Assembly: GCA_963724765.1 (NCBI GenBank)
Contig: CAVRVY010000004.1
Coordinates: forward strand, 1,440,001 to 1,504,000
DNA: 64,000 nucleotides
Direction of reading: 5' to 3'
DNA from: an uncultured delta proteobacterium
Lineage (GTDB): Bacteria; Desulfobacterota; Binatia; Binatales; Binataceae
Shown: piece after piece, positions 4,067 through 25,347 of the stretch
How positions within the stretch are numbered: the stretch's first letter is position 1
How the letters are laid out: each line of letters opens with the position of its first letter
Notes under the pieces: generated by a model
Seen by the model: only the letters and a program-made list of their open reading frames with translations
Database searches by the model: none
Told to the model about the DNA's origin: nothing
Position numbers and translations under genes: made by a program

Positions 4067-4108
4067 TTCAACGAAAAGTGGAACCGCCTGACGTGAAAGC
4101 GTGAAAAG

Positions 4109-5231: not shown

Positions 5232-6866
5232 CTATGGGAAAAAGCTCGGCGGCGCGGTTCTGACGAGCTCTGGAATTCCGTCCAGGCGCGCGGCAGACGA
5301 ACCGGCGCGCGCAAACAACGCGCATATCGGGTCGCGGTAGATCAGGCGCCATTCGGCCTGCGCCATCATCAGTATATAAGCGGCCGACCCGGTCGGCATC
5401 AGCACGAAATCGTTTGGGTAGGCGTCGAGGACGCGTGCGGCGCCCGGCTCCGCGTAGTTGATTGCGGCAAAAACGCTTTGCACCTGATGCGGATAGTAGG
5501 CCTCGAAAATGCTCTCAATGAAAATCTTCCAACGTGCGGCATCGTGGAAGAGCAGATAGTCGGCCCATCCGAAATCGCTCAGCACGTTGCCGTGGAAATC
5601 ATGCTCCTGCATGAAAGCCAGCGCGCCCACTGGCTTGGCTTCGACCGCGGGCAGCGCTTTCGATAGTAGCCCGGTGTGGATCGCAAAACCAACCGCCAGC
5701 ACGGCAAGTGCGGCGTGCAACGCTTGCCAAATCCGCACCGGGCGCGCCACGTCGGCACTCGATGGAGACCGCAGGCGATCGATGAGCAGATCGGCATGGC
5801 GGCAGAGCGGAATACAACAAGCGATCACGGCCAGCGCCGTGTTGCGTACGGCGTAAAGCGCGCTGACCGTCATCAGCGCCGCGACCGCGAACAAGGCGAG
5901 ATCGTCGGCACGTGGTGTGAGCGCGAAGGTAACCAGGAGCCCGGCCATGATTGCGAGTGCGGAGATGAAGGTGAACAGCGGCCGATGGTTGCGGTGAAAA
6001 TCGACCACGACCGCCAACAGCGAGCGGAACTCGGAGATATGGCGCAGCGTGAAGGGATTGCGCAGCACGCCGGCGATCACGATCCAGTCCTTCATCCCAT
6101 AGGGGTTGAGGAGCGTAGCCAGCGTCGCCGCCGAAGTCAGCGCCGCGAGCTCAATCGCGCGGCTGAGCCCGCGCCCCTCGGCCAGGTCCTGTGTTGCGCG
6201 CACCGCCGTGTACAGGCCCATCGCCACCAGGCCGACGAAGAACCCGCCGTGCAGATTGGTCCACAGGGCGAGCATCGGCACCGCGAGCCACAGCCGTGCG
6301 CTACGGCCATAGCTCTCGCGCGCGAACATCGCCATCAATGCGGCCAGGCAGACGTCGTCGGCGAGGAAGGTGCGAAACTGCATGTGCGCGATGATTGCGA
6401 ATGCCGCCGCCAGCAACGTCAGCCCTTGCACTATCAGCGCCGCTCCGGTCTCGGCCATCCCCAGCGACAGCAACACCATCACCGCCGCGACGCATGCGAA
6501 CTTGGCGAGTTTGAGCCCGACCACGCCGGCCACGTTGTACACCAGCGCCATCAGGACCTCGCCCAGCCAGTCCACCATGATCCAATCTCGCGGACCCGGG
6601 GGGCAGGCATACGACGACGGTGCGTGGAAGAAGAATTGATGCCGCGTGAGGACGATATTGCCGAAATGGATATGGCCCCAGAGATCGGTATCCGCGGCGC
6701 GCATCGCGTCGGCGATCACGATCGCGAACAGCACCACCCCAGGCGCGGAGCGCAGCAGCGAGCGGCCGGGCGGTTGCGAACCGGCTTCCGGCGGCGCGTC
6801 GATGGCAGCGCGGCGCGGCGATGATAGACCAGCGCTCCGCGGCGCCTGCTCAAGACTCCCCCCCAA
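5232..6866 (-). CDS. Polytopic membrane protein, probable GT-C-fold glycosyltransferase-like
   Basis: Many hydrophobic helices; DTDLWGH loop after TM1 and LWTNLHGGF motif; GGAGG before the TTG start. Confidence 0.6.
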   Translation of the reverse strand: MGGSLEQAPRSAGLSSPRRAAIDAPPEAGSQPPGRSLLRSAPGVVLFAIVIADAMRAADTDLWGHIHFGNIVLTRHQFFFHAPSSYACPPGPRDWIMVDWLGEVLMALVYNVAGVVGLKLAKFACVAAVMVLLSLGMAETGAALIVQGLTLLAAAFAIIAHMQFRTFLADDVCLAALMAMFARESYGRSARLWLAVPMLALWTNLHGGFFVGLVAMGLYTAVRATQDLAEGRGLSRAIELAALTSAATLATLLNPYGMKDWIVIAGVLRNPFTLRHISEFRSLLAVVVDFHRNHRPLFTFISALAIMAGLLVTFALTPRADDLALFAVAALMTVSALYAVRNTALAVIACCIPLCRHADLLIDRLRSPSSADVARPVRIWQALHAALAVLAVGFAIHTGLLSKALPAVEAKPVGALAFMQEHDFHGNVLSDFGWADYLLFHDAARWKIFIESIFEAYYPHQVQSVFAAINYAEPGAARVLDAYPNDFVLMPTGSAAYILMMAQAEWRLIYRDPICALFARAGSSAARLDGIPELVRTAPPSFFP

Positions 6867-7186
6867 GACCTCACCTCCGCCCGATTGCCGGGCGCCGACG
6901 TTGCAGCGGCCAGTGCGGCCTTAAGAACCGCGGCTCCGCTCCCCACGGCTGACACTCTAACGGTGCGCGGCGAAAGCGTCAAAACGAAGCGCTGCCGGTC
7001 TGCGGCACATGCCGAAACGGCTCACCACGCGTAGGGCAGACGTCAGGGACGCCGCTACAACTCGGAGCCGCCGGAGCGACGCCGGCAAATCGTGGGCTGA
7101 AATAAAGTACGCCCCGAACCCGGCGCGACATTGCGCGCGGGGTGCGGGGCGATAAGTCGAGCGATACGTCTTGCGGATCGAAACTT

Positions 7187-7780
7187 TCAGGTTTGCGGTG
7201 GGCGCGATTTGGCCTCGGCGCGCCATTCGTTGTTGGTGCTGCGGTCGCCCGCAAGCCACTTGCGCAGGTCCTCATGCGCGCTGGCGGAGCGTTTGGCCGC
7301 AATCTTGTCGGCCGCGGGATGATCGACTGTGAACTCGAGGTTCAAACCATTAGGGTCGGTGACATAGAGCGACACGCAATAGCCATGGTCGATAACCATG
7401 GTCTCGTGGCCGGCGGCTTCGAGCCGGCGCTGCATCTCCTGCTGGCCGGGCGCGTCGGCCACCTTCAGCGCCAGGTGAACAAACGGTGAGTGCGGTCCGT
7501 AGTGCGCGAATTTTTCGTGCTGCTTGGGATTGGCGAAATGAAAGAACGCCAGCGCTCCGCCGTCGGCGATCTGGAAAAACAGATGGCAGTAATACAGTTC
7601 GTCCTCGCCGAACACCTTATCGCACTCGCGCCAGGCCGCGACCATCGGCCAGCCCAATATGTCCTCGTAAAACTTCCGCGTCTGCTCGAGGTCGCGGCAG
7701 ACGTAGGCCGCGTGATGCAGCCGCGTCGGAACCGTGTCCAGTTTGCCGCGCCCCTGACCGTTGGTTTGCGTTGTGCTCAT
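7187..7780 (-). CDS. VOC/glyoxalase family protein
   Basis: LHHAAY...FYEDILG, HLAL, IDHGYCVSLYVTDPNGLNLEFT. Confidence 0.85.
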   Translation of the reverse strand: MSTTQTNGQGRGKLDTVPTRLHHAAYVCRDLEQTRKFYEDILGWPMVAAWRECDKVFGEDELYYCHLFFQIADGGALAFFHFANPKQHEKFAHYGPHSPFVHLALKVADAPGQQEMQRRLEAAGHETMVIDHGYCVSLYVTDPNGLNLEFTVDHPAADKIAAKRSASAHEDLRKWLAGDRSTNNEWRAEAKSRPPQT

Positions 7781-7805
7781 GGTGATTTGCCCTCGTAACC
7801 CGTTT

Positions 7806-8411
7806 CTAATCCTTGTACCGGGCCTCGCGCAACGGGACTCGGCGGTCTGCCGGTTGTAGGTCCTGGCGCGCGGACCCAGCGTCCCGAACCGCGTCGGCGT
7901 CTAGGTTGCGCTTGATGCAATCGAGCTGCTCACGCAGCAGCGGTATTTTCTTGGGCGATATTCCTGCCAGCGCGACCTGGTTCACTTCCATCGCGTAGGG
8001 CAGCAGCACTTCGCGCAGCCGCCGGCCTTCGTCGGTGAGACGGATATTGACCTTGCGCCGGTCCTCGGAGTTGCGCGTGCGGCTAATAAGCCCGCGCCGC
8101 TCCATGCTTTCCAGCGCGGTCGCCGTGGTCGGCTCCATCATCCTCACCCGTCGGCTGAGCTCGCGCTGGGTAAGCCCGTCTTCCTCCCACAGCGCGCGCA
8201 GGAAGTACCACATCCCGATACTCACGCGATGCCTCGATACGCGCGCACCCAGGGCGCGGAGAAAGGCGCGATGGGTTTCGCGCACCAGGTAACCGACGCT
8301 CTGGTCGGGCGGAAAATCCGCGCCGGACTTCCGGGCCGGCGGCGCCGCCGCCTTGGAAGCCGCCGCCTTGGTCGTCATTGCTCTTCCATTGTTCACGCTA
8401 TGCCGGTTCAT
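7806..8411 (-). CDS. MarR family transcriptional regulator (start may be 8378)
   Basis: SVGYLVR...LWEEDGLTQRELS...LESMERRGLISR..DRRKVNIRLTDEG; divergent from the catabolic operon. Confidence 0.92.
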   Translation of the reverse strand: MNRHSVNNGRAMTTKAAASKAAAPPARKSGADFPPDQSVGYLVRETHRAFLRALGARVSRHRVSIGMWYFLRALWEEDGLTQRELSRRVRMMEPTTATALESMERRGLISRTRNSEDRRKVNIRLTDEGRRLREVLLPYAMEVNQVALAGISPKKIPLLREQLDCIKRNLDADAVRDAGSARQDLQPADRRVPLREARYKD

Positions 8412-8507
8412 TTCTGCGCTTCGTTCAGCCCTTCGCGATCAACGCTTGTCGAAGACTCTGCCATAGCCCGCAGCATAGCAGGCGCTCCGCCCCGAGCTTA
8501 TGCGGTC

Positions 8508-8588
8508 TTGACGAATAGCCGGGAGGGGGACTACTAAGAATACTTAGATATCTTTGCATTAGATATCCTGGCGTTTAGAAAGCTTGGC
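8508..8588 (+). promoter_or_regulatory. Promoter (-35 TTGACG) followed by three degenerate TTAG-N4-C(T/C) repeats, candidate MarR operators
   Basis: TTGACG 8508-8513; ACTTAGatatCTTTGC 8542-8557; CATTAGatatCCTGGC 8557-8572; GTTTAGaaagCTTGGC 8573-8588. Confidence 0.5.
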
Positions 8589-8652
8589 ATTTGGCGCACT
8601 TGCCTGCGAGCAAAGCTGACCGGCGCGCCGCCTTATTATACGGAGCGTTCAC

Positions 8653-9900
8653 GTGGAAGCAGTCGCGCAAAACTCCCCGAAAAATTCCCGTCGCTGGCCG
8701 CCCGAGGGTCTGGGCCGCGTCCCCTACTGGGTCTACAGCGATCCTGAGGTCTATGCCCTGGAGCAGACGCGCATTTTTTCCGGCCCGTACTGGAACTACG
8801 TCGCGCTCGAGGCTGAAATTCCGAAGCCCGGAGATTTTGTCCGCAGCCACGTCGGCGAACGCCCGGTAATCGTGGTGCGCGACAAGCACGGCGGTATCAA
8901 TGTAATGCTCAACCGCTGCGCCCATCGCGGCGTCCAGTTCTGCCGCGCCAACTGGGGCAACACGCGCTCATTCACCTGCCCCTACCACCAGTGGAGCTAC
9001 GATCTGAAGGGCAATCTCACCGGAGTGCCGTTTCGCCGCGGCGTCAACGAGAATGGCGGGATGCCCGGGGATTTCGATCCGTCGCAAAACGGGCTGACGC
9101 GCCTCGAGGTCGCGGCGCGCCACGGCGTGATCTTCGCCAGCTTCGATTCCGCCGTACCGCCGCTGGAGAAGTATCTCGGCCCCGCGATGCTGCCATATTT
9201 CGATCGCGTCTTCGACGGACGCGAGTTGCGCGTGCTCGGCTATTCGCGCCAGCGCATCCCCGCCAACTGGAAGCTGATGTTCGAGAACATCAAGGATCCC
9301 TATCACGCGAGCCTGCTCCACGTGTTCCTGGTCACCTTCGGCTTGTTCCGCGCCGACCAGCCCTCGGCGGTGAAGATGGACTCGAGCGGGATGCATTGCG
9401 TGCTCACCTCCAGCAAGGGCGAACAGAAGCTCAACGCGACCACCAAGGAAATGAAAAACTTCCGCGCCGACTTCAAGCTCAACGACCCGCGGCTACTCGA
9501 CCCGGTGCGCGAGTTTCCCGGCGCGGCCACGGTCGTGATGCAAACGCTGTGGCCCAACATCATCATCCAGCAGCAATCGAACACGCTCGCGATGCGCCAC
9601 CTGGTGCCGCGCGGCCCCGAACTCTTCGACCTGATGTGGACGTTCTTCGGCTATGCGAACGACACGCCTGAAATGACCCAGCGCCGCCTGCGCCAGGCGA
9701 ACCTGATGGGGCCCGCCGGACTGGTTTCGATCGACGACGGCGAGGTGATGGAGTTCTCGCAGCAGGGCGTCCGCCAGCGTCCCGGCGGCGCAGGCATGCT
9801 CGAGATGGGCGGTCGCGGCACGGACGACGAGGATCACATGGTGACCGAGGCGGCGATCCGCGCCTTCTACAAACATTACCGCGCGGTGATGGAGTTCTGA
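8653..9900 (+). CDS. Rieske ring-hydroxylating oxygenase alpha subunit (salicylate 5-hydroxylase/anthranilate dioxygenase-like group)
   Basis: CAHRG...CPYHQW Rieske motif; ENIKDPYHASLLH and IDDGE mononuclear Fe ligands; RQANLMGPAG signature. Confidence 0.93.
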   Translation: MEAVAQNSPKNSRRWPPEGLGRVPYWVYSDPEVYALEQTRIFSGPYWNYVALEAEIPKPGDFVRSHVGERPVIVVRDKHGGINVMLNRCAHRGVQFCRANWGNTRSFTCPYHQWSYDLKGNLTGVPFRRGVNENGGMPGDFDPSQNGLTRLEVAARHGVIFASFDSAVPPLEKYLGPAMLPYFDRVFDGRELRVLGYSRQRIPANWKLMFENIKDPYHASLLHVFLVTFGLFRADQPSAVKMDSSGMHCVLTSSKGEQKLNATTKEMKNFRADFKLNDPRLLDPVREFPGAATVVMQTLWPNIIIQQQSNTLAMRHLVPRGPELFDLMWTFFGYANDTPEMTQRRLRQANLMGPAGLVSIDDGEVMEFSQQGVRQRPGGAGMLEMGGRGTDDEDHMVTEAAIRAFYKHYRAVMEF

Positions 9901-9905
9901 TCCCG

Positions 9906-10400
9906 ATGGCGCGCGCGCAGCAGGACTTGCAAAACTTCGCCTTGCGGCTCGAAATCGAAGAGCTGTTCACCGAGTACGCTCACGCGCTGGACAACGGCGA
10001 GCTGGAGCAGTGGCCGGAGTTTTTCACCGACGATTGCCTCTATCAGATAGTCTCGCGCGAGAATCGTGAGCGCGCTCTGCCGCTCGCGCTGATGCGATGC
10101 GAGAGCAAGGCGATGCTGACCGATCGCGTGGTGACGATCCGCCAAACCCAGATGTTCGCGCCGCGCGCCCTGCGCCACCTGGTCAGTTCGCTCAGGATCG
10201 CACCCGCGACGGCCGACGGTGTCGACGTGCAGGCCAACTACGCCGTGCTGCAAACTCTGGTCGACGACGAAACCCGTATCCTGAGCGCGGGCCGTTATAT
10301 CGATACGCTCGTGCGCGACGGCGACGTGCTCAAATTCAAATCGCGGACCTGCGTGTACGACACCGTCTTGGTGCCGAACTCGCTGATTTATCCTCTATAA
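9906..10400 (+). CDS. Ring-hydroxylating oxygenase beta subunit
   Basis: YAHALDNGELEQWPEFF...RENRERALPL..MLTDRV; ends VYDTVLVPNSLIYPL. Confidence 0.92.
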   Translation: MARAQQDLQNFALRLEIEELFTEYAHALDNGELEQWPEFFTDDCLYQIVSRENRERALPLALMRCESKAMLTDRVVTIRQTQMFAPRALRHLVSSLRIAPATADGVDVQANYAVLQTLVDDETRILSAGRYIDTLVRDGDVLKFKSRTCVYDTVLVPNSLIYPL

Positions 10401-10475
10401 ACGAGCAGCCCCCTATAAGCGACGAACGCCACTGTGAACGATTATGCTATTGCAAATTTCCACTGAGGCGGCGCG

Positions 10476-11477
10476 ATGAACGTTCAGGCGCTATGGATAA
10501 CGGAGGCGGAGGTCGCCGCGCTCGTCGACATGGGCGATGCGATCGCGGCGCTGGAACGTGGGCTCTCGGCGGAGGCTGCGAGCGCCGCTGTCAACATGGT
10601 AAAGACTCATACCACGTTCGGCCATGACGACACGTTGCACGCGATCGGCGCAACGATGCTCGCCGAGGGCGTGGTCGGCACCAAGACCTGGGCACACACC
10701 GAGGGCGGCGCGAATCCGCTGCTGATCCTGTTCGACGCGCGCAACGGCCAGCTAATTGCAGTGATCGAAGCGTTCGCGCTGGGACAGTTGCGCACCGCGG
10801 CAATCAGCGGGCTCGCCACACGATGGCTCTCCGCGCCGGGAGCCTCCGAAATGGCGCTCATCGGCACGGGCAAACAGGCGCTCGCGCAGGTCGCGGCGAT
10901 CGCCGCGGTGCGCAAGCTGCGGCGCGTGCGGGTGGCCAGCCGCAATCCCGAAAACGCCGCGGCCTTCGCCAAGCGCGCGAGCGCGGAATTGAAATTGGAA
11001 GTCGAACCCGCCGCCACTATCGCCGCCGCCGTGAAGGACGCTGATATTATAACTTTGGTCACGCGCGCGACCGCGCCCTTTTTGCAATCCGCGATGGTCG
11101 CGCCGGGAGCGCATATCAATGCGGTCGGGGCCGTCGTGCCCGAGCGCGCAGAGTTCGAGCCGTCGATGCTCGCGCGATGCGCCGTCGTGGCGGCCGACAC
11201 CGTGCCAGGAGTGCGCGGCCTCTCGCGCGAATTCATCGAGTTCTTCGGCAACGACGATCGCGCGTGGGACGCCGTGCTCGCGCTCAGCCGCGTGATAGCG
11301 GCGGGCAAAGGTCGCCCAGCGGGAGCGGACCTGACGCTGTTCAAGGCGATGGGTATGGGAATTTCGGATCTCTCGATCGGCGTCGAAGTTCTGCGCCGCG
11401 CGCGCGCCAACAGCGTCGGACGGCCATTGGCTCCAACGCTTCGGGCCAAGCCGCGGCTCGGCGGCGGAAAAGCATAA
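10476..11477 (+). CDS. Ornithine cyclodeaminase/mu-crystallin family protein (imine reductase-like)
   Basis: LGQLRTAAISG, IGTGKQA, HINAVGA, LFKAMGMGISDL. Confidence 0.88.
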   Translation: MNVQALWITEAEVAALVDMGDAIAALERGLSAEAASAAVNMVKTHTTFGHDDTLHAIGATMLAEGVVGTKTWAHTEGGANPLLILFDARNGQLIAVIEAFALGQLRTAAISGLATRWLSAPGASEMALIGTGKQALAQVAAIAAVRKLRRVRVASRNPENAAAFAKRASAELKLEVEPAATIAAAVKDADIITLVTRATAPFLQSAMVAPGAHINAVGAVVPERAEFEPSMLARCAVVAADTVPGVRGLSREFIEFFGNDDRAWDAVLALSRVIAAGKGRPAGADLTLFKAMGMGISDLSIGVEVLRRARANSVGRPLAPTLRAKPRLGGGKA

Positions 11478-11533
11478 ACCGGCGCCGGCTCACAGAATTC
11501 GGCGTCTAAAAATTCAAGTGCGAGGCAATACCA

Positions 11534-12622
11534 ATGAGCGAAAACAAATTCCGATTCGTCGATCGCAGCGGTTACGTCACTCCCAAGCTTGATCTGTGGC
11601 CATCGATCGTCATCTCCAAGGAAGAGATCGAAGCCGAGGTGAATCGGCTGGCGAGCCTGCCGCCACCGGCCAATGGACGGCGCCGCTCGCTCATCGTTCA
11701 TCCCAACGAAAACGGCACCGGCCTTGCCCCCGGCATCCAGGTCGCGCTCGACGTGCTCAAGCCGGGCGAGCGCACCAAGCCGATCCGCCACAACTCCTCG
11801 CAGGTCAACTTCTGCATCCGCGGCCGCGGACATGCGGTGGTCAACGGCAGGCAAATCAACTTCAGCCAGTACGACGTCTGGAACACGCCCTCGCTGAACG
11901 TCTACCAAAACTTCAACGATAGCGACGAGGTGCAGGTGCGGTTGACTTACAGCAACGCCGCGCTGCTGGAAAAGATGAACGCGCATATCGTCGAGGAAAA
12001 TCCGCCGGCCGAAGAGATCAAGGGCGAGGCCCCGTCCGGCGAGCCTGACGCGCGCCACGTCAACCCGTTCGGCACCTTCGCACTCAACAACGATGGCGCG
12101 TACCTGCTGCCCTACGAAAAGCTGATAAGTCCCGACGTGATCGAATCGCCCGTGCTGTTCTGGCCATGGCGTCAGGTCAAGGAGCATCTCGACAAGTTGC
12201 AGGCGCTCGGTTCGTCCTACGTCGGACGGCGCCTATACCTGCTGTATAACCCGGCCACCGGACGCACCAACGGCACGACGCACAACTTTTTCGCGACCAT
12301 GACTGTGCGTCCGCCGCACATCGTCGACAAACCGCATCGCCACGCCGCCGCCGCCATCAATTACTATTTCTCGGGCAGCGGCTACAGCACGGTGCAGGGC
12401 AAGGTACTGCCGTGGAAAGCGGGCGACCTGATGCTGTCGGCGCCGGGCTGGGCGGTCCACAATCACGCCTCGAACGACGAGCCAGTGTACGAACTGACTA
12501 TCCAGGACAGTCCGCTCCACATCGCGATGGATTCGCTGATGTGGCAGGAAGATCTGAAACATCCGGCACGCCTGTTGGGCTCGAGCTACGGCTTCGACAC
12601 CAACCGGGTCAAGGTCGCCTAG
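11534..12622 (+). CDS. Bicupin ring-cleaving dioxygenase (gentisate/1-hydroxy-2-naphthoate 1,2-dioxygenase-like)
   Basis: Two cupin repeats (LKPGERTKPIRHNS; PHRHAAAAINY..GSGYS..WKAGDL..PGWAVHNH..IQDSPL). Confidence 0.8.
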   Translation: MSENKFRFVDRSGYVTPKLDLWPSIVISKEEIEAEVNRLASLPPPANGRRRSLIVHPNENGTGLAPGIQVALDVLKPGERTKPIRHNSSQVNFCIRGRGHAVVNGRQINFSQYDVWNTPSLNVYQNFNDSDEVQVRLTYSNAALLEKMNAHIVEENPPAEEIKGEAPSGEPDARHVNPFGTFALNNDGAYLLPYEKLISPDVIESPVLFWPWRQVKEHLDKLQALGSSYVGRRLYLLYNPATGRTNGTTHNFFATMTVRPPHIVDKPHRHAAAAINYYFSGSGYSTVQGKVLPWKAGDLMLSAPGWAVHNHASNDEPVYELTIQDSPLHIAMDSLMWQEDLKHPARLLGSSYGFDTNRVKVA

Positions 12623-12626
12623 CGTT

Positions 12627-13538
12627 ATGCTGGCGCTTAACCGGAATTTTCTTCGCGGCTCCTACCCTCCGCTGGTCACGCCGTTTCGCGGCGGCGCCGT
12701 GGAATACGACGCGTATGCGCGGATGGTCGCGCGACAGGTGGCCGAAGGCTCGCACGGAATCGTCGTCAACGGCACAACCGCCGAGCCGAGCACGCTCAGC
12801 ATCGACGAGCGCAACGAGTTGGTGCGGCTCGCGGTGCAAACCGCGCGCGGCCGCATCCCAGTCGTCGCCGCCACCGGCTCGCAATCGCATGCCGACACGA
12901 TTGAGCTCACCGCCGCCGCGCAAGAAGCGGGCGCCGACGCGGTCCTGGTCGTGACGCCATACTTCATCCGGCCGCCGCAGCGCGGCCTGGTCGAATACTA
13001 TGTCGATATCGGCCGGCGGACGCGGCTGCCGATGCTCATCTACCACATACCCGGACGCGCGGCGGTGAACGTCGAGGCCGCCACCATCGAGCGCATCGCC
13101 GAGCGCACCCCCAACCTGGTCGGGATGAAGCACGCGGCCAACGATCTCGCGCTGGTCACCCAGGTGCTCGCGCGGATGGGCAACGATTTCCGCATCTTCG
13201 TCGGATTGGAAGAGCTGAGTTTTCCGATGATGGCGATCGGCGCGTGCGGCCTGATGAATGCCGCGGGCAACTTGAAACCCGGGGCGCTCGCGCAGATGTG
13301 CGAGGACGTATTCGCCGAGCGTCTCGCGCCGGCACGCACCGCGCACGACGCGCTGTTCGAGCTCAACCAGGCGATCTTCTTCGACACCAATCCCACGCCG
13401 CTCAAATACATGATGAAACGGATGGGGCTGCTCGAAACCGAGGAACATCGTCTGCCGATGATGCCGGCGACGCCGGAGCTCGCCGCGCGGCTTGACGGCG
13501 TGCTTACGCGAGCCGGCCTGATTGGAGCAAATGCCTGA
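12627..13538 (+). CDS. DapA/NAL-family class I aldolase or hydratase-aldolase
   Basis: PLVTPF, GTTAE, YHIPGR, GMKHA (Schiff-base Lys), TNPTPLK. The catabolic context argues against DHDPS. Confidence 0.85.
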   Translation: MLALNRNFLRGSYPPLVTPFRGGAVEYDAYARMVARQVAEGSHGIVVNGTTAEPSTLSIDERNELVRLAVQTARGRIPVVAATGSQSHADTIELTAAAQEAGADAVLVVTPYFIRPPQRGLVEYYVDIGRRTRLPMLIYHIPGRAAVNVEAATIERIAERTPNLVGMKHAANDLALVTQVLARMGNDFRIFVGLEELSFPMMAIGACGLMNAAGNLKPGALAQMCEDVFAERLAPARTAHDALFELNQAIFFDTNPTPLKYMMKRMGLLETEEHRLPMMPATPELAARLDGVLTRAGLIGANA

Positions 13539-13569
13539 TCGGGGCAAATGCGTGATTGGAGTGAGTTGA

Positions 13570-14703
13570 ATGAGCAGGGACAAAGGCGCGGACGAACCTC
13601 GGCGCAAAACCAATCCGCTCTTCAACGACCGCAAGCTCAAGCTCGGCACGTTCTCGAGCAACCTGAGCCACGGATGCGCGATCACCACGATCGATGGCGT
13701 GCTGAAGGCCGACTGGCAGAGCACGCTCACGCTGGCACGGCTCGCGGATGAGATGGAGTTCGAGGCCCTGGTGCCGGTCGGCCGCTGGAAGGGCTTCGGC
13801 GGCGTGACGAATTTCAATGGCGCCGGCTTCGAGCCGTACACCTGGGCCGCCGCGATCGGCGCCGCGACAAAATATCCAGCCGTCTTCGCGACCTCGCACG
13901 TGCCGACGATGCATCCGATCATGGCCGCCAAGCAGGCGACGACCATCGATCACGTCACCGGCGGCCGCTTCGCGCTCAACGTCGTCACCGGATGGTTTCT
14001 GCCGGAGATCGAGATGTTCGGCGCGCCGCAGATGGATCACGATCTTCGGTACGATTGCGCAGTCGAGTGGCTCGACATCATCAAGCGCCTCTGGACCGAG
14101 GACGAGGAATTCGACTACAGCGGCAAGTACTACCAGATTAAAAAGGGGATTCTGCGTCCCAAGCCGATCCAGGCGCCATATCCGGTCGTCATGAATGCGG
14201 GCGGTTCGGACAAGGGGCGGCACTACGCGGCCAAATATTGCGACGTGGCGTTCGTCATTTTCGATCCCGACGATGCCGCCGGCGCCAGAGCCCGAGTCAG
14301 GAGCTATCGGGAACTTGCGCAGCGGGAATACGGCCGCGACCTCCAGTTGTGGACCGCCGCCTACGTGGTCCAGGGAGAGACGGAAAAGGCGGCCCGGGAT
14401 TTCTTCGATTACTACGTCCATCAAAAAGGCGATTGGGTCGCGGTGACCAACCTGGTCGAAACCATGGGCATCAACGCGAAAATTCTGCCGCCTGAGACGT
14501 TGCGATCGATGAAGACCCACTTCATCGCGGGATGGGGCGGCTATCCGCTCGTCGGCACCAACGAACAGATCGTCGAAGGGCTGGAGCGGCTATCCGAGAT
14601 GGGTCTCGATGGCGCGGTGCTTTCGTGGCCGCGTTATATCGAGGGTATGCGGCAATTCAAACAGGAAATCATGCCGCTCGTGAGGCAGGCTGGGCTTCGT
14701 TAG
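13570..14703 (+). CDS. LLM-class flavin-dependent monooxygenase (RutA/SfnG-like)
   Basis: PVGRWKGFGG, HPIMAAKQATTIDHVTGGRFALNVVTGW, MNAGGSDKG. Confidence 0.88.
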   Translation: MSRDKGADEPRRKTNPLFNDRKLKLGTFSSNLSHGCAITTIDGVLKADWQSTLTLARLADEMEFEALVPVGRWKGFGGVTNFNGAGFEPYTWAAAIGAATKYPAVFATSHVPTMHPIMAAKQATTIDHVTGGRFALNVVTGWFLPEIEMFGAPQMDHDLRYDCAVEWLDIIKRLWTEDEEFDYSGKYYQIKKGILRPKPIQAPYPVVMNAGGSDKGRHYAAKYCDVAFVIFDPDDAAGARARVRSYRELAQREYGRDLQLWTAAYVVQGETEKAARDFFDYYVHQKGDWVAVTNLVETMGINAKILPPETLRSMKTHFIAGWGGYPLVGTNEQIVEGLERLSEMGLDGAVLSWPRYIEGMRQFKQEIMPLVRQAGLR

Positions 14704-14727
14704 AACGCGCGCAAGGAGAAATTTCGG

Positions 14728-16233
14728 ATGTCTGACGCGAGCCAACAAACGCAACCGTCGCAACCATCAATCGACCAAAGAGAACTGGTCGCTTCAATTC
14801 CGCGCGACCTCTACTACTCGGGCGGCTGGCACGCCGCCGCCGAGGGCGCTCGCACCGAGGTCTGGAGCCCCTCGACGGGACAATCGCTGGGCAAGGTCGC
14901 GTGGGCCGGAGCGGAGGATGTCGATCGCGCCGTGCGCGCGGCACATGCGGCGTTCTTCCAGTGGCGGGACGTGAAGCCGCTCGAGCGCGCGAAAATCCTG
15001 CGCGAGGTCGCTGCGCTGCTGCGCCGGCACGGACGCGAACTCGCGCTCATCGACGCCGCCGATTGCGGCAACCCGATCGCCGAGATGATAAACGACTCGG
15101 CCATCGGGGCCGCCAGCGTGGAATACTTCGCCGGCCTGGTCTCCGAGGTCAGAGGCAGCACCATCCCGATGGGCCCCGGCGTGCTGAACTACACGCTGCG
15201 CGAGCCTTTGGGAGTGATCGCTCGTATCAACGCATTCAACCATCCATTGTTGTTCGCCGCGATGCGCACTGGCGCACCGCTCGCCACCGGCAACACCCTG
15301 ATCGTCAAGCCGCCCGAACAGGCGCCGCTATCCTCACTGCGATTCGCGGAGCTTGTCGGACCGCTTTTTCCGTCCGGCGTGTTCTCCGTGCTTCCGGGCG
15401 GGCGCGAGTGCGGCGCCGCACTGACGGCGCATCCGTTGGTCGCGAAGGTTGGGCTTATCGGTTCGGTACCGACGGGAAAAGCGATCATGCGGGCGTCGGC
15501 CGATTCGCTCAAGAAGGTGGCGCTCGAACTCGGCGGCAAGAATGCGCTGATTGCCTATCCTGACGCCAACCCCGACAAAGTGGCCGCCGGAATCATCCGC
15601 GGGATGAACTTCACCTGGTGCGGTCAATCCTGCGGCTCGACCAGCCGCGCCTTCGTGCACGAGACGATCCACGACGCGGTGCTGGAGCGTGTGGTCGCCG
15701 CGGCACGCGCGATAAAACCCGGCATCCCTACCGAACAGAGCACCGCGATGGGCAGTCTGATTAGCAAGGAGCAGTTCGACAAGGTCACGCGCTACATCGG
15801 TTACGGCGTCGAGGACGGCGCGCGGCTGGTCGCCGGTGGCAAATCGCCGCAGGATGCGCATCTCAGCAAGGGCTTCTTCATCGAGCCGACCATTTTCGCC
15901 GACGTCACGTCGAAGATGCGAATTGCACGCGAGGAAATCTTCGGCCCGGTGCTCAGCGTGTTTCGATGGTCGGATGAAGCCGAGATGCTGCGGGCCGTCA
16001 ATGACGTCGAATATGGTCTGACGGCTTCGATCTGGACGCGCGACCTTGCCACCGCGCATCGTACCGCCGCGCGCGTCGAAGCCGGCTACGTATGGGTCAA
16101 CTCATCGAGCGCCCATTATCTGGCCGCCCCGTTCGGCGGTTATAAGCAGTCGGGCGTGGGCCGGGAAGAGTCGATCGAAGAAATGATGGACGCCACGCAA
16201 ATCAAGAACGTGCACGTCGAGTTCGATGCCTGA
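14728..16233 (+). CDS. Aldehyde dehydrogenase, PhdK (2-carboxybenzaldehyde dehydrogenase)-like
   Basis: LELGGKN, GMNFTWCGQSCGSTSR (resembles the PhdK subfamily), EEIFGPV, PFGGYKQSG. Confidence 0.88.
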   Translation: MSDASQQTQPSQPSIDQRELVASIPRDLYYSGGWHAAAEGARTEVWSPSTGQSLGKVAWAGAEDVDRAVRAAHAAFFQWRDVKPLERAKILREVAALLRRHGRELALIDAADCGNPIAEMINDSAIGAASVEYFAGLVSEVRGSTIPMGPGVLNYTLREPLGVIARINAFNHPLLFAAMRTGAPLATGNTLIVKPPEQAPLSSLRFAELVGPLFPSGVFSVLPGGRECGAALTAHPLVAKVGLIGSVPTGKAIMRASADSLKKVALELGGKNALIAYPDANPDKVAAGIIRGMNFTWCGQSCGSTSRAFVHETIHDAVLERVVAAARAIKPGIPTEQSTAMGSLISKEQFDKVTRYIGYGVEDGARLVAGGKSPQDAHLSKGFFIEPTIFADVTSKMRIAREEIFGPVLSVFRWSDEAEMLRAVNDVEYGLTASIWTRDLATAHRTAARVEAGYVWVNSSSAHYLAAPFGGYKQSGVGREESIEEMMDATQIKNVHVEFDA

Positions 16234-16978
16234 CGCTGGCGTGCCGGCGCTGGAGAACGCCTCGGACGTGATCGTCGAGCTTGTAGCGGCGAACCATATC
16301 CTGTTCGACCAGGGCGTGGTCGACGGATTCGGGCATGTCAGCGTCCGCCATCCGACGGAGAGTGGCCGGTTCCTGCTAGCGCGCAGTATCGCGCCGGCGC
16401 TCGTCATGGCGGCCGACATCATGGAGTTCGACCTCGACGGGAATCCACTCGACGCCGGCGGCCGCGCGGTCTATCTCGAGCGCTTCATCCATAGCGAAAT
16501 CTACCGCACGCGGCCGGACGCAGGCGCGGTGGTCCATAGTCATTCGCCGGCGGTCGTGCCCTTCAGCGTGGCTAAACACGTGCCGCTGCGTGCCGTCTGG
16601 CATCTCGGGGGAGTTCTGGGCGAAGGCTGTCCGGTCTTTGAGATCCGTACGGCCGCCGGGCCGGCGACCGATATGCTAATCCGCGATCGCGGCCTGGGAG
16701 CAGCCCTGGCCAAATCGCTCGGGCGAGGATCGGTGGTGCTGATGCGCGGACACGGCTGCACGGTTGTGGGATCGACCGTGCGCCACGCGGTTTTCAACGC
16801 GGTCTATACGGAGGTAAGCGCCGCGCTGCAGTCCGAGGCAATGCGATTAGGCACCGTGATCTATCTTACGCGCGAGGAGGCTGAAGCCGCCGCGGCCTGC
16901 AACGCCGCGCAGATCGATCGGTCCTGGGAGTTGTGGAGAATGCGAGCGGAGCGCCAACGGCTTCAGCCCCAGACCTGA
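16226..16978 (+). CDS. Class II aldolase/adducin-fold protein resembling 3-hydroxy-2-methylpyridine-4,5-dicarboxylate decarboxylase
   Basis: DGFGHVSVR, YLERFIHSEIY, VHSHSP, LMRGHG, C-terminal AQIDRSWELW. Confidence 0.8.
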   Translation: MPDAGVPALENASDVIVELVAANHILFDQGVVDGFGHVSVRHPTESGRFLLARSIAPALVMAADIMEFDLDGNPLDAGGRAVYLERFIHSEIYRTRPDAGAVVHSHSPAVVPFSVAKHVPLRAVWHLGGVLGEGCPVFEIRTAAGPATDMLIRDRGLGAALAKSLGRGSVVLMRGHGCTVVGSTVRHAVFNAVYTEVSAALQSEAMRLGTVIYLTREEAEAAAACNAAQIDRSWELWRMRAERQRLQPQT

Positions 16979-18114
16979 CGCGCCGTTTCTACGATCAGTT
17001 CCAGCTTGCGCTTTTGATCGTCCTCGCTGACCAGATTGCCGACGAACTCCGAAGCGAAGCCGCACTGCGGGCTCAACGCCAGTTGTTCGAGCGCGACGTA
17101 GTGGCTGGCTTCGTCGATTCGCCGCTTCAGATCGTCAATCGTTTCAAGTTGCGCCACCTTGGTGCTGACCAACCCGAGCACAATCGTCTTGCCGCTGGGC
17201 ACGAAGCGCAGCGGTTCGAAGCCGCCGGCGCGCGGCGAATCGTACTCGAGCAGGAAGCGATCGTGGTTCAGTTCGTTGAACAGCATCTCCGCGATCGCGT
17301 CGTAAGCGCCCTCGCGATGCCACATGCTGCGCTGGTTTCCGCGGCACAAATGAATTCCGAAGGTCACATCGCCGAAGCCGCGGATCAGATCGTTGTCGGC
17401 TCTGAGCGAACGCTTGAAATTGAGTATCGGATCTTCACCGCGTTCTCGCATCGCGTCGAGTGACGGACCGTCTACGTAGGCGGTGTAGCCGGGCGCATCG
17501 ATATGAACGTAGCGGCATCCCGCGGCGGCGAGGCCCGCGATCATCGCGCGCTCGACCTCGACCACATCGGCGAGAAAATTCTCCATCGCCGGGTAAACAT
17601 GCGCGGAGTTGGCAAGGTCGACGCGCTGCGAAATGCGATCGGGTCCGATCAATGTAACCTTGACCGGCTTGCGCGCGACCGCGGCCGCGTAGCCGTACTC
17701 CTCGAGCACCAGGTTGCGCCTAAGCCGCAGCCGCTCGACCACGCGCTGGCGCTGCACCACGGGCGTTCCCTTGCGCTGTTCAACGCCGAGCGGAAGCTCG
17801 AAACGCTGGAGCGGTTTCGCTCTCGAAGTCCGCTGGTCGTAGAAATCGAGCGTCGCCTGTCCGCGGTCGTAGCCCGAAACCGCTTCGCCGAAGCTGTCCT
17901 GGAAATTGAGCCGGCGAAACTCGCCGTCGGTGACGACGTCGAGTCCGATCTGCTCCTGCAAGCGGATCGCGCGATCGACGGATTCGTTTTCGGCCGCGCG
18001 AAATTCGAGCGCGTCGATCTCGCCGCGCTCGTAGCGAAGCCGGGCCTGCCCCAGCGCCTCGGGCCGCAGCAGGCTGCCGACGACGTCGGTGCGGATGCGG
18101 CCGAAGCGATTCAT
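16963..18114 (-). CDS. Single-barrel cobalamin-independent methionine synthase II-like (MetE-core) protein
   Basis: VVGSLLRP, TDGEFRR, Zn ligands HLCRGN, LLEYD and PQCGFAS. Confidence 0.88.
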   Translation of the reverse strand: MNRFGRIRTDVVGSLLRPEALGQARLRYERGEIDALEFRAAENESVDRAIRLQEQIGLDVVTDGEFRRLNFQDSFGEAVSGYDRGQATLDFYDQRTSRAKPLQRFELPLGVEQRKGTPVVQRQRVVERLRLRRNLVLEEYGYAAAVARKPVKVTLIGPDRISQRVDLANSAHVYPAMENFLADVVEVERAMIAGLAAAGCRYVHIDAPGYTAYVDGPSLDAMRERGEDPILNFKRSLRADNDLIRGFGDVTFGIHLCRGNQRSMWHREGAYDAIAEMLFNELNHDRFLLEYDSPRAGGFEPLRFVPSGKTIVLGLVSTKVAQLETIDDLKRRIDEASHYVALEQLALSPQCGFASEFVGNLVSEDDQKRKLELIVETARQVWG

Positions 18115-18879
18115 CTAGATGAACGCAAGGCCACCATCGCAGTTGATCGTCTGGCCGGTGATGAAGCCGGCGTCGTCCGAAGCGAGGAATGCCGCCACGC
18201 CGACCAGGTCCGCCGGCGTTTCGTGATGCTTGAGGCACTGCGCCTTGAGCATCGCCTCCTTCTGTTCCGGGGTGACGGTGGCACGCGCGATCTCGGTGTA
18301 AACCGGTCCCGGCGTGATCGCATTGACGCGCACGTTGAACTCGCCGAGCTCGCGCGCCATCGCACGCGTCAGGCCGAGCACTCCGGCCTTGGACGCCATG
18401 TAGTGCGCGTAGCCCGGACGGGCCAGCATATAGGCCGCCGACGAGATGTTCACGATCGCCCCGCTCTTCTGCTCGCGCATCGGTGCGCTGCACGCCTTGC
18501 CCGCGAGCCACACGCCCTTGAGGTTGACCGCCATCAGGCCGTCCCATTCGGCGACGCTCATTTCCCAAAACGGCTTCATCTGGATGGTCGAGAAAATCGC
18601 CGCGTTGTCGATCAGCACGTCGACGTGGCCGAACGCTTTCAGCGCCTCGTCGACCATCTGCTTGCACGACGGCTCGCTGGAGACGTCGGTGGTGCAAAAG
18701 ATAGCGTTGGCGCCGGAGTCGGTGACCTCGGCCAGCACGCCGCGGCCCTTGTCCGCGTTGACGTCGGCCAGCACCACGTTGCATCCCTCGTCGCGGAACC
18801 GGCGCGTGTACGCGCGTCCGATACCTTGAGCGGCGCCAGTCACGATTACGGTTTTGCCTGCCAATCCGTTTAGAGGCAT
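18115..18879 (-). CDS. Classical SDR oxidoreductase
   Basis: TGAAQGIG, NISS, YMASK, VNAITPG. Confidence 0.92.
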   Translation of the reverse strand: MPLNGLAGKTVIVTGAAQGIGRAYTRRFRDEGCNVVLADVNADKGRGVLAEVTDSGANAIFCTTDVSSEPSCKQMVDEALKAFGHVDVLIDNAAIFSTIQMKPFWEMSVAEWDGLMAVNLKGVWLAGKACSAPMREQKSGAIVNISSAAYMLARPGYAHYMASKAGVLGLTRAMARELGEFNVRVNAITPGPVYTEIARATVTPEQKEAMLKAQCLKHHETPADLVGVAAFLASDDAGFITGQTINCDGGLAFI

Positions 18880-18965
18880 GGGTCACACTTCCTTTGAGCG
18901 ATAAGTTGGTTCGCCCGCGGGCACATTACCTCGGGTTTTGCACAGCGCTTAAGCACCTGGAAAAC

Positions 18966-18981
18966 ACTTAGCAATCTAAGT
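18966..18981. promoter_or_regulatory. Perfect palindrome ACTTAG-CAAT-CTAAGT upstream of the SDR-metE operon
   Basis: 6-4-6 inverted repeat in an AT-rich gap; same half-site as the repeat at 8542. Confidence 0.6.
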
Positions 18982-24861: not shown

Positions 24862-24876
24862 AGGGGATGCGCGCTT

Positions 24877-25347
24877 TCAGGCGCGCGTGATCGCGATCGC
24901 TTCGACCTCGATCAGCAGTCCGGGAAAGGCCAGCGCCGCGATCACCACCGCGGTGCTCGCGGGCGGGTCACTGCCGAAGATTTCGCTCCGCACCGCAAGC
25001 ATGTCCATGAACTTCGACCCGTCGGTGATGTAAGTATTGATCTTGACGATATCCTTCAGACCGCTCCCGGCGCTCTCGAGCACGCTCTTGATATTCTCGA
25101 AAACCTGACGGGTCTGCGCTTTCATATCGCCCTCGCCCACCAGCTTGCCGTCTGAATTGTAGGCGACCTGTCCAGAGACATAGATCGTGTTGCCGATCTG
25201 TTTGCCCTGAGCGAGCGGCAAGCGATCGTCCCACGCCCATCCTGGATCTACGGTCCGCCTTTGAGCAGGCGAAGCGGTTACCCGGCGCACCTTGGGGGCG
25301 CTGGTTTTGCCACGTCCGCGACCAAGCTGCTTCTTTTTGCCCGGCAT
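24877..25347 (-). CDS. Rid (RidA/YjgF) family protein
   Basis: IYVSGQVA, QTRQVFENIK..L..AG...DIVKIN, PPAST, LIEVEAIA. Confidence 0.9.
   Translation of the reverse strand: MPGKKKQLGRGRGKTSAPKVRRVTASPAQRRTVDPGWAWDDRLPLAQGKQIGNTIYVSGQVAYNSDGKLVGEGDMKAQTRQVFENIKSVLESAGSGLKDIVKINTYITDGSKFMDMLAVRSEIFGSDPPASTAVVIAALAFPGLLIEVEAIAITRA

Follow-up and report, generated by a model that had tools for sequence, protein, structure and literature searches.

What would be broken down, and by which chemistry, by an operon in which the genes of a two-subunit Rieske oxygenase are followed by those of an OCD/mu-crystallin protein, a two-barrel cupin protein (bicupin) and a DapA-like aldolase? These genes lie within positions 7187-18981 of a 64,000-nucleotide stretch of DNA, hereafter the window, from an uncultured delta proteobacterium of the family Binataceae (assembly GCA_963724765.1, contig CAVRVY010000004.1, positions 1,440,001 to 1,504,000). 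An initial annotation, made from the sequence alone, had read the locus as a pathway for a bicyclic N-heteroaromatic or amino-aromatic acid. Here it is read, tentatively, as a MarR-controlled operon for the aerobic breakdown of aromatic acids with an uncharacterised and widely distributed lower module. The substrate that we favour, with somewhat less than even confidence, is a monocyclic ortho-substituted aryl carboxylate of the salicylate/anthranilate class, which would be degraded via a C7 2-oxo-diacid.

The observations behind this reading are the gene families, the synteny, the fold class of the bicupin and the replacement of the DapA-like gene by genes for HpaH, HpaI and succinate-semialdehyde dehydrogenase (SSADH) in relatives. 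The strongest functional clue comes from cultured carriers. On the megaplasmid of Ralstonia solanacearum, the cluster starts with an HsaA/C2-like flavin monooxygenase and a reductase, a SnoaL-like protein, a CMD-like protein, an OCD protein (48% identity) and the bicupin (60%), after which come HpaH, HpaI, SSADH, a second aldehyde dehydrogenase (ALDH) and a short-chain dehydrogenase/reductase (SDR); its HpaH (451 against 351), HpaI (389 against 369) and SSADH (714 against 646) all score above the curated cut-offs. Plasmid pBB1 of Cupriavidus necator N-1 carries SnoaL-like, HpaH, HpaI, LysR, OCD (44%), bicupin (46%), Rieske beta/alpha (50%), LIV-type ABC transporter and SSADH genes. In Paraburkholderia, the bicupin is accompanied by a DapA-like protein (65%), a CMD-like protein and an OCD protein, with VanA/VanB-like genes and an aromatic-acid symporter nearby.

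Gene content of the locus

The genes of the window were assigned from a listing of open reading frames (ORFs), Pfam matches and the curated cut-offs of NCBIfam, and selected proteins were compared with solved structures in the Protein Data Bank (PDB). All genes named in the initial annotation were recovered at their positions by ORFs, Pfam and NCBIfam:

7187-7780, minus strand: VOC/glyoxalase-fold protein of 197 amino acids (PF00903, E 3e-13)
7806-8411, minus strand: MarR-family regulator (PF01047, E 1e-11)
8508-8559, plus strand: putative promoter/operator block (TTGACG at 8508-8513; palindrome CTAAGAATACTTAG at 8534-8547)
8653-9900, plus strand: Rieske oxygenase alpha subunit, NagG/AndAc/TphA2 subfamily (PF00355 and PF00848)
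9906-10400, plus strand: Rieske oxygenase beta subunit (PF00866, PF13577; AndAd model 170, under its cut-off of 230)
10476-11477, plus strand: OCD/mu-crystallin protein, NAD(P)-dependent (PF02423, E 8e-44)
11534-12622, plus strand: bicupin, candidate dioxygenase (two Cupin_2 stretches)
12627-13538, plus strand: DapA-like protein, a DapA paralogue (PF00701, E 4e-71)
13570-14703, plus strand: luciferase-like flavin monooxygenase, LLM (PF00296, E 3e-51)
14728-16233, plus strand: ALDH, NAD(P)-dependent (PF00171, E 5e-150)
16226-16978, plus strand: class II aldolase-fold protein (PDB 2z7b, Mlr6791, E 2e-58)
16963-18114, minus strand: MetE-like protein, cobalamin-independent methionine synthase fold (PF01717)
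18115-18879, minus strand: SDR (PF13561, PF00106)

The eight genes from Rieske alpha to the class II aldolase-fold protein (8653-16978) form a tight plus-strand run, with intergenic gaps of 5, 75, 56, 4, 31 and 24 nt; the last two genes overlap by 8 nt. The VOC and MarR genes are an adjacent minus-strand pair divergent from this operon, and the SDR and MetE-like genes another such pair, convergent with it. A curated NCBIfam cut-off is passed by two of the twelve cluster proteins, namely the DapA-like protein (TIGR00674) and the SDR (a generic subfamily model).

Conservation and distribution of the module

A scan of a genome collection for the bicupin gave 597 pattern matches, 584 of which were confirmed, and 80 loci (given L numbers below) were kept. 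The window proteins were compared by tblastn with these loci and two plasmid loci, at 55% coverage and with family-specific identity floors. A gene was counted when it lay less than 8 kb from the bicupin, over the 65 loci whose flanks reach at least 4 kb on either side; the genes of the loci were taken from a GC3-weighted caller, and some loci keep miscalled starts or fused ORFs. The numbers of loci, of 65, with each gene near the bicupin are as follows:

DapA-like, 37 (following the bicupin); OCD, 31 (directly upstream of it); Rieske alpha, 21; Rieske beta, 21
MarR, 15; class II aldolase-fold, 15; CMD-like protein of 185 amino acids, 12
ALDH, 10; MetE-like, 10; LLM, 9; VOC, 9

The usual order is a CMD-like or class II aldolase-fold gene, then OCD, bicupin and DapA-like genes. 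The OCD-bicupin-DapA-like core recurs across several phyla, often with a NagG-like Rieske pair, a MarR gene and one of the two alternative first genes. The full set recurs in close Binataceae relatives only: it is syntenic at 75-98% protein identity in eight loci (L001-L008), with OCD variable. The arrangement thus exceeds chance, and the earlier view of a catabolic operon is supported. A further locus (L011) carries the set with the MetE-like and SDR genes displaced, and VOC was not found there. Judging from the counts and the order in the 65 loci, the eight-gene operon is a lineage-specific elaboration of a conserved core of three to four genes. Literature searches found no published description of this gene combination, in agreement with the initial annotation, which knew of none.

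The best related loci, with 90-98% bicupin identity, are in metagenome-assembled genomes (MAGs) titled Candidatus Binataceae or 'uncultured delta proteobacterium'. The trait is patchy, since the bicupin occurs in seven of 121 sampled genomes of the class (the window's own counted) and in one of the 14 other genomes of the family. DNA of the operon is present in nine metagenome runs from six studies of peat, soil and freshwater sediment (shares 0.21-0.50); the search of sequencing runs listed no RNA data set carrying it.

The bicupin as a candidate ring-cleaving dioxygenase

In the solved-structure search, the bicupin is a remote relative of a gentisate 1,2-dioxygenase (GDO; 3bu7, E 6e-15). An AlphaFold2 model was made from 15 family members (pLDDT 71.7, pTM 0.77), and its best Foldseek matches are GDO 3bu7, the salicylate 1,2-dioxygenase (SDO) 2phd with its mutants, and 2d40, with TM scores of 0.62-0.68 at 17-22% identity. 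Four histidines (H268, H270, H309 and H311) are invariant in the C-terminal barrel, and the motif of the N-terminal barrel keeps a single conserved histidine, H86. Thus, the three-histidine site expected in the N-terminal cupin of the GDO class is missing, and the HxH...H set stands in the C-terminal barrel, which aligns with residues 83-185 of the SDO chains. The iron ligands of SDO and GDO presumably lie in their N-terminal barrel.

From the modelled fold, the bicupin is probably a three-histidine Fe(II) ring-cleaving dioxygenase of the GDO/SDO fold class with its histidine triad in the C-terminal barrel. By sequence it appears to be a distant, domain-permuted relative of gentisate and salicylate 1,2-dioxygenases, in a separate and tightly conserved family. 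Of 6631 candidates, 2838 match the family at E <= 0.001, and identity is at least 63% in each of the best 120. Relatives with 63-70% identity are spread across Binatia, Alphaproteobacteria, Eremiobacterota, Acidobacteriota and Burkholderiaceae, and the best 120 bear only the automatic labels 'gentisate 1,2-dioxygenase', 'cupin' or 'AraC family ligand binding'.

Enzymes of the GDO/SDO class break the bond that joins the carbon carrying the carboxyl group to the adjacent hydroxylated carbon, and fission of this kind would give a linear C7 2-oxo-diacid, fit for HpaH/HpaI or for a DapA-like aldolase. The SDO of Pseudaminobacter salicylatoxidans (2phd), among the best fold matches with a TM score of about 0.67, is a bicupin with three histidines that turns an ortho-hydroxy aryl carboxylate into a linear C7 2-oxo-diacid, the skeleton implied here. 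It differs from the window protein in sequence (17-18% identity), in the swapped order of the catalytic barrel and in its downstream enzymes.

A bicupin homologue of Rhodococcus koreensis (42%) was set aside as a carrier of the module; it has no OCD or DapA-like neighbours, only SSADH and LLM genes nearby. Nine loci of Binatia (L019, L021, L022, L025, L026, L031, L032, L038 and L040) have a bicupin with 66-69% identity, also without OCD or DapA-like genes. By Pfam, the L019 neighbours are an amidase, an S15 peptidase, a CN-hydrolase, an amidohydrolase, an NAD_binding_2 imine-reductase-like protein, an esterase, an LLM and an EthD protein; by clustering, these neighbours are the same proteins in eight to nine of the nine loci, which gives the bicupin family a different, amide-rich context.

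The DapA-like protein and its proposed product

The DapA-like protein scores 251.8 bits with TIGR00674 (DapA), above the cut-off of 206.15, and its nearest solved structures are true DapA enzymes. Its best NCBIfam match is all the same TIGR02313 ('HpaI-NOT-DapA', 293.6 bits, under 396.7), a model that we take to have been built for DapA paralogues acting as HpaI. Two better dapA loci (362.8 and 352.3 bits) are found elsewhere in the genome; therefore, the protein is a paralogue and not the biosynthetic copy. It is 35-36% identical to the genome's own DapA, and its motifs YHIPGR and VGMKHA align with YNIPGR and VGIKEA there, so that the Lys, Tyr and Arg are kept. In DapA, this Arg binds the carboxylate of aspartate semialdehyde.

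Three loci (L081, L090 and L016) yielded no DapA-like gene; there, HpaH and HpaI genes adjoin the bicupin, with SSADH nearby in two of the three. Since HpaH and HpaI, with SSADH nearby, take the place of the DapA-like protein, the product would be an aliphatic C4 aldehyde, and the aromatic aldehyde foreseen by the initial annotation is not supported. Together with the kept Lys, Tyr and Arg, this replacement points to cleavage of a linear C7 2-oxo-diacid to pyruvate and a carboxylated C4 aldehyde. The DapA-like protein is accordingly proposed, by sequence comparison, to act as a class I (hydratase-)aldolase releasing these two products. The ALDH would then oxidise the aldehyde released by the aldolase. 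Its best NCBIfam matches are BADH, HpaE and StyD, all under the cut-off, and it is 37% identical to the Ralstonia SSADH.

A likeness to the lower pathway of homoprotocatechuate follows from these genes: true HpaH, HpaI and SSADH are present in the Ralstonia/Cupriavidus module, and a DapA paralogue takes their place here. However, HpaD, HpaE, HpaF and HpaG are absent from the window, and the OCD protein has no hpa counterpart.

The initial annotation had likened the bicupin, the DapA-like protein and the ALDH to PhdI, PhdJ and PhdK, which convert 1-hydroxy-2-naphthoate to phthalate, and a cupin dioxygenase, a DHDPS-family lyase and an ALDH do follow each other in the same order. The comparison was made with a cupin-DHDPS-ALDH trio on a Sphe3 plasmid, which we take to be the PhdI/J/K-like enzymes of a phenanthrene degrader. 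Identities to this trio are 27%, 25% and 44%. The bicupin is as far from the PhdI-like cupin as from gentisate dioxygenases. The DapA-like protein (E 4e-5 to the PhdJ-like protein, which has Val at the position of the DapA Arg) is nearer to true DapA than to the hydratase-aldolases of the NahE/PhdJ type, and the stripping of one ring from a bicyclic acid is not supported. The 44% match of the ALDH is not diagnostic, because this protein is also 37-41% identical to seven other ALDHs of the same genome.

The Rieske oxygenase pair

The Rieske alpha subunit matches NagG, a salicylate 5-hydroxylase (7c8z), with E 4.8e-151, and is 55% identical to an annotated nagG. With the AndAc model NF041684 it scores 458.4 bits, under the equivalog cut-off of 750. 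The two-subunit architecture is confirmed by the Rieske [2Fe-2S] and catalytic domains of alpha (PF00355, PF00848) and by the separate, adjacent beta subunit (PF00866). Arg315 of the alpha subunit aligns with the carboxylate-binding Arg of NagG (7c8z, R323) and of terephthalate dioxygenase (TPADO; 7vju, R309), and Leu251 aligns with Met257 of NagG and Ser243 of TPADO. According to PMC9060491, this Arg forms a salt bridge with the aryl carboxylate in NagG and TPADO, the Ser of the latter binds the second carboxylate, and the known substrates of the subfamily are salicylate, anthranilate, hydroxypicolinate and terephthalate. From the alignment of Arg315 and Leu251 and these known substrates, the substrate is likely a mono-carboxylated aryl or heteroaryl acid. 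The hydroxylases beside the module elsewhere are a NagG-like Rieske pair, an HsaA/C2-like two-component flavin monooxygenase, VanA/VanB-like genes and an FAD_binding_3 enzyme.

The OCD protein and the question of nitrogen

The nearest solved structures of the OCD protein are the ketimine reductase CRYM, Pyr2C reductase, iminosuccinate reductase and an archaeal alanine dehydrogenase (AlaDH). It belongs to this family also by its motifs, as it keeps GTK and LRTAA in alignment with CRYM, Pyr2C reductase, BhcD and AlaDH. The Lys and the Arg of RTAA hold the alpha-carboxylate of the substrate in this family. By this sequence relationship, the protein is proposed to reduce an alpha-imino or alpha-oxo acid function in the ring-fission product.

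Nitrogen chemistry in the pathway is plausible. A RidA gene and an amino-acid permease adjoin the module in L013. In an alphaproteobacterial MAG (L069, approximately 6995-13562), genes for kynureninase, tryptophan 2,3-dioxygenase (TDO), OCD, bicupin, the DapA-like protein and a tartronate-semialdehyde-reductase-like dehydrogenase follow on one strand, the kynureninase scoring 285 bits against an equivalog cut-off of 246. Of the N-heteroaromatic substrate first suggested, the nitrogen thus stands to some extent, on the Lys and Arg of the OCD protein, the RidA gene and the kynureninase/TDO genes, and the bicyclic nature does not. The divergent HpaG-like gene of the FAH family in L069 encodes a protein 57% identical to one that edges the Ralstonia cluster.

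The same genome also has two paralogous clusters in which a ring-cleaving dioxygenase gene is followed by DHDPS-superfamily and OCD-family genes, at L093 4601-10157 (C2, approximately 515.6-521.2 kb) and, as an inverted second copy, at approximately 307-312.6 kb of C2. Each has a sigma-54 activator, HcaE/HcaF-like Rieske alpha/beta subunits, an SDR/diol dehydrogenase and an extradiol dioxygenase resembling BphC, which scores 353 bits where the cut-off is 366. Their OCD-family protein is 31% identical to that of the window, and their DHDPS-superfamily protein is distant. The pairing of a dioxygenase with DHDPS- and OCD-family proteins therefore occurs three times in this genome, and since it recurs with a BphC-like dioxygenase in two other clusters, it may reflect a general handling of ring-fission products rather than nitrogen in the substrate. 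One of the two copies is flanked by a MetE-like gene (27% to that of the window) and an ORF of like size.

Approximately 5 kb downstream of the window's cluster, at 23686-26373, are genes for an acyl-CoA dehydrogenase-fold protein, a RidA (L-PSP) protein and a 'cyclase' protein of PF04199. Kynurenine formamidase and isatin hydrolase are members of PF04199. The interval to the cluster is occupied by genes for a pseudouridine synthase, a two-component system and an ammonium transporter.

Lineage-specific genes of the operon

The LLM, the ALDH and the decarboxylase-like class II aldolase-fold protein had been placed as later steps of the pathway; they are not conserved with the core. An LLM gene is near the module in nine of the 65 loci, all close Binataceae relatives, and an ALDH gene is near the bicupin in ten, nine of them close relatives and the tenth L056 with a 46% homologue. 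The LLM falls in the SfnG/RutA/SsuD group. Among solved structures, it is nearest to RutA (1e-35), a resemblance already noted in the initial annotation, and to SfnG (5e-31), and it stays under all NCBIfam cut-offs (SfnG 173.7 against 383, RutA 140.1 against 498).

The class II aldolase-fold protein matches Mlr6791, the 3-hydroxy-2-methylpyridine-4,5-dicarboxylate (HMPDC) decarboxylase of vitamin B6 catabolism, over residues 15-243, nearly its full length; this resemblance, too, was rightly recognised at the outset. With the PhtC model it scores 79.8, under 200. By its sequence, it is probably a decarboxylase of an ortho-hydroxy aromatic dicarboxylate. Homologues (41-44%) lie directly upstream of OCD-bicupin in seven alphaproteobacterial loci, with no DapA-like or ALDH gene there. 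The recurrence beside OCD-bicupin suggests a role in another kind of ring-cleavage system, whose substrate the protein would supply or process.

One position is shared by the CMD-like gene and the class II aldolase-fold gene, which co-occur in none of the 65 loci and seem to be alternative solutions for a single step, probably decarboxylation. The CMD-like protein has weak CMD Pfam matches (E 1e-4 and 0.06), no solved relative at E <= 5 and no NCBIfam match, and with it as the query no homologue was found in the window's genome.

The MetE-like protein scores 276 with PRK06520, under 313, and has six other paralogues in the genome, five at 37-42% and one at 27% identity over at least 60% of the length. 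It is perhaps more than a bystander, because a homologue with 69-70% identity precedes OCD-bicupin in L013 and L015. For the SDR, many SDR models score alike, including pyridoxal 4-dehydrogenase (217 against 325). The VOC protein reaches no NCBIfam cut-off; it is 87-96% identical in L001-L008, and the ninth match, in L065, has 37% identity. Overall, the class II aldolase-fold protein, the LLM, the SDR, the MetE-like protein and the VOC protein are best read as lineage-specific peripheral additions, which probably turn a precursor with further substituents, such as a hydroxy-dicarboxylate, into the substrate of ring fission.

Proposed pathway and points against it

The substrate, each chemical step and the order of the steps are inferred from the comparisons above. 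A NagGH-like two-subunit Rieske oxygenase, served by a ferredoxin and a reductase from elsewhere, would oxygenate the aryl acid. The bicupin would then open the ring beside the carboxyl-bearing carbon and give a linear C7 2-oxo(hydroxy)-dienedioate. With NAD(P)H, the OCD protein would act on an alpha-imino acid, an alpha-oxo acid or a conjugated function of this product, after which the DapA paralogue would release pyruvate and a C4 acid semialdehyde, that of succinate, malate or aspartate. The ALDH may finally oxidise the C4 semialdehyde.

Several points weigh against this pathway. Its mass balance is awkward: a monooxygenase, a dioxygenase, a two-electron reduction and a hydration leading to succinate semialdehyde fit a substrate at the level of benzoate or salicylate and misfit a dihydroxy- or amino-hydroxybenzoate. 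From a substrate of the 2,3-dihydroxybenzoate/3-aminosalicylate type, the OCD protein would receive an alpha-oxo or an alpha-imino acid, as suits its family, but the end product would be malate or aspartate semialdehyde and not the succinate semialdehyde to which the Burkholderiaceae clusters point. By this balance, the Rieske hydroxylase and SSADH point in opposite ways. The model of the bicupin is moderately confident, with nearest folds of just 17-22% identity. HpaH and HpaI adjoin the bicupin in three loci only, and those of L016 may belong to a neighbouring extradiol dioxygenase with hydrolases. Among the ORFs of the 64-kb window, none encodes a ferredoxin, a ferredoxin reductase or a flavin reductase, and the electron carriers of the Rieske oxygenase would have to be encoded elsewhere.

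The OCD protein also has its difficulties. Among ten close relatives, four (L004, L005, L006 and L008) have an intact gene for it, L001 has a frameshift in this gene and L007 keeps a remnant. The gene is missing from L002, L003, L009 and L011, in which Rieske beta and the bicupin are immediate neighbours. Because the rest of the operon is kept at 75-98% identity, the protein may not be an obligatory step in this lineage. To our knowledge, reduction of anything but C=N would be unusual for an OCD-family enzyme. The link to kynureninase and TDO is seen in one of 82 loci only, and neither enzyme was found in the window's genome with the L069 queries.

If the module is a distinct route from salicylate/anthranilate-type acids to pyruvate and a C4 acid, the lower pathways known from textbooks would gain one more for ring fission, and OCD-family and DapA-like paralogues that are now misannotated would be given a catabolic role. 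It would also help to explain the use of plant- and microbe-derived aromatic acids by uncultured soil and peat lineages such as Binatia. The cultured carriers, C. necator N-1 and Paraburkholderia, make the module directly testable.

Alternative readings

The Rieske pair might belong to a plain salicylate-to-gentisate route, in which it would be a salicylate 5-hydroxylase, the bicupin a GDO, and maleylpyruvate would be handled by the OCD protein, the DapA-like protein and the ALDH instead of an isomerase and a hydrolase. NagG is indeed the closest characterised relative of Rieske alpha, the bicupin is the sole GDO-family match in a 97%-complete genome, the HcaE-like upper-pathway clusters of this genome could yield salicylate-type acids, and FAH-family genes are near the module in L069 and L081. 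In the nag pathway of Ralstonia sp. U2, an oxygenase of the same Rieske subfamily (NagGH; NagG 5e-151) is likewise followed by a bicupin of the same fold class (NagI), and pyruvate is an end product. However, that pathway has its own ferredoxin and reductase (NagAa/NagAb) and proceeds through the isomerase NagL and the hydrolase NagK, whereas the present operon has no isomerase, FAH-type hydrolase, ferredoxin or reductase and has OCD and DapA-like genes instead. The bicupin is also remote from GDO, with 62.6 bits against a cut-off of 442.1 for TIGR02272 (56.2 bits in the genome search), and its histidine triad is in the other barrel, in a domain-permuted family that keeps 63-70% identity across phyla. 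The hydratase HpaH would be superfluous on that route, the kynureninase/TDO operon and the RidA gene would be left unexplained, and we know of no precedent for the reduction of a 4-oxo group by an OCD-family enzyme. This reading is therefore considered unlikely.

Likewise unlikely is a pathway for a monocyclic N-heteroaromatic carboxylate, such as a hydroxypicolinate, a pyridine-dicarboxylate or a B6-like compound. The Rieske oxygenase would hydroxylate a pyridine carboxylate (as in 6-hydroxypicolinate 3-monooxygenase), the class II aldolase-fold protein would decarboxylate it (as in HMPDC decarboxylase), opening of the pyridine ring would fall to the bicupin or the LLM, and the OCD protein would reduce the alpha-imino acid that results. 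The substrates of OCD-family enzymes do include alpha-imino acids, a function that is present in the ring of picolinates; the LLM is RutA-like; NMT1/THI5-like binding proteins adjoin the bicupin in L013, L044 and L050, and amidase and CN-hydrolase genes lie near it in the L019-type loci. The NagG/TphA2 subfamily includes a hydroxypicolinate monooxygenase, according to PMC9060491. The class II aldolase-fold protein, in addition, matches Mlr6791 better than the PhtC model, but no other enzyme of the B6 pathway (MHPC oxygenase, AAMS hydrolase or pyridoxolactonase) was recognised in the cluster by Pfam or NCBIfam, and both the LLM and the decarboxylase-like gene are outside the conserved core. Cleavage of 3-hydroxypicolinate between C2 and C3 would moreover break the chain at the nitrogen and give no C7 2-oxo-diacid of the kind that HpaH, HpaI and SSADH imply.

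A bolder and rather improbable reading takes the OCD-bicupin-DapA-like core for an unrecognised lower pathway of several phyla in which dihydrodipicolinate chemistry runs in reverse and the nitrogen of an aromatic amine ends in aspartate. Ring fission of a 3-amino- or 3-hydroxy-salicylate, derived from anthranilate or tryptophan, would give a 2-amino(oxo)-6-oxohepta-2,4-dienedioate, the OCD protein as an imine reductase would trap this product before it cyclises to dead-end dipicolinate, and the DapA paralogue would split it into pyruvate and aspartate (or malate) semialdehyde. The DapA/DapB branch of lysine synthesis offers a parallel, in that a DapA-type Schiff-base aldolase is paired with an enzyme family that reduces cyclic alpha-imino acids, and the two would work on a C7 2,6-difunctionalised diacid skeleton. 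Unlike that branch, the context here is catabolic, the OCD protein is unrelated to DapB and the direction of the reaction would be reversed.

Catabolism of dipicolinate itself was also examined as a candidate and rejected. The accessible text of PMC11472048 gives no functions of dip genes, and the dip regulator named there is of the GntR and not the MarR type. The known 3-hydroxydipicolinate route needs no aldolase.

It is very unlikely that no aromatic ring is opened and that the OCD protein, the DapA-like protein and the ALDH act as the imine reductase, the Pyr4H2C-deaminase-like enzyme and the semialdehyde dehydrogenase of hydroxyproline or cyclic imino acid catabolism, with a bicupin that cleaves no ring and a Rieske oxygenase that dealkylates or hydroxylates an amino acid derivative. 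OCD-family and DHDPS-family enzymes are paired in hydroxyproline pathways, and amino-acid permeases and LIV-type ABC transporters are near the module in L013, L016 and L090. On the other hand, Rieske alpha is in an aryl-carboxylate subfamily and keeps the Arg, the nearest folds of the bicupin are ring-cleaving dioxygenases and its three-histidine set is kept, other aromatic hydroxylases and aromatic-acid transporters flank the module, and HpaH and HpaI are enzymes of aromatic lower pathways.

Least probable of all is the bicyclic N-heteroaromatic or amino-aromatic acid of the initial annotation, to be stripped of one ring in the PhdI/J/K manner to an ortho-dicarboxylate, decarboxylated and opened by the LLM: the order of the DapA-like, LLM, ALDH and decarboxylase-like genes fits, as do the 44% ALDH match and the resemblance to Mlr6791, but the DapA-like protein keeps an Arg that the PhdJ-like protein lacks, HpaH, HpaI and SSADH replace it in relatives, the LLM and the ALDH are kept with the module in nine close relatives only (bar the ALDH of L056), and the decarboxylase-like gene recurs upstream of OCD-bicupin where DapA-like and ALDH genes are missing.

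Regulation

A MarR protein with 47-62% identity is encoded near the module in the distant loci L046, L056, L057, L062, L065, L075 and L077. In all ten aligned intergenic regions between MarR and Rieske alpha (the window and nine relatives), the block of TTGACG and the palindrome CTAAGAATACTTAG is invariant or nearly so, and the flanks vary. From this conservation, the block is plausibly a promoter with a MarR operator. A consensus promoter scan gave no match at 8508-8559, and the totals of the promoter and terminator scans equal those expected by chance. An exact direct-repeat motif of the same region was rejected as a conserved element, as it occurs in none of 92 loci and the palindrome is conserved instead.

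Other genes of the window

A CN-hydrolase gene and an agmatine deiminase gene (PF04371, E 9e-120) are adjacent at 3197-5197 and form an agmatine-to-putrescine-like pair, which looks unrelated to the cluster. At 5232-6866, a minus-strand ORF of 544 amino acids with a good third-position GC bias overlaps a plus-strand ORF of 382 amino acids (5676-6824); neither has a Pfam match, and the minus-strand ORF is probably the real gene. Two further LLM genes and one HpcH/HpaI-family aldolase gene are found at 30570-31628, 42939-44270 and 48592-49383, among genes for acyl-CoA dehydrogenases, enoyl-CoA hydratases and hydrolases.

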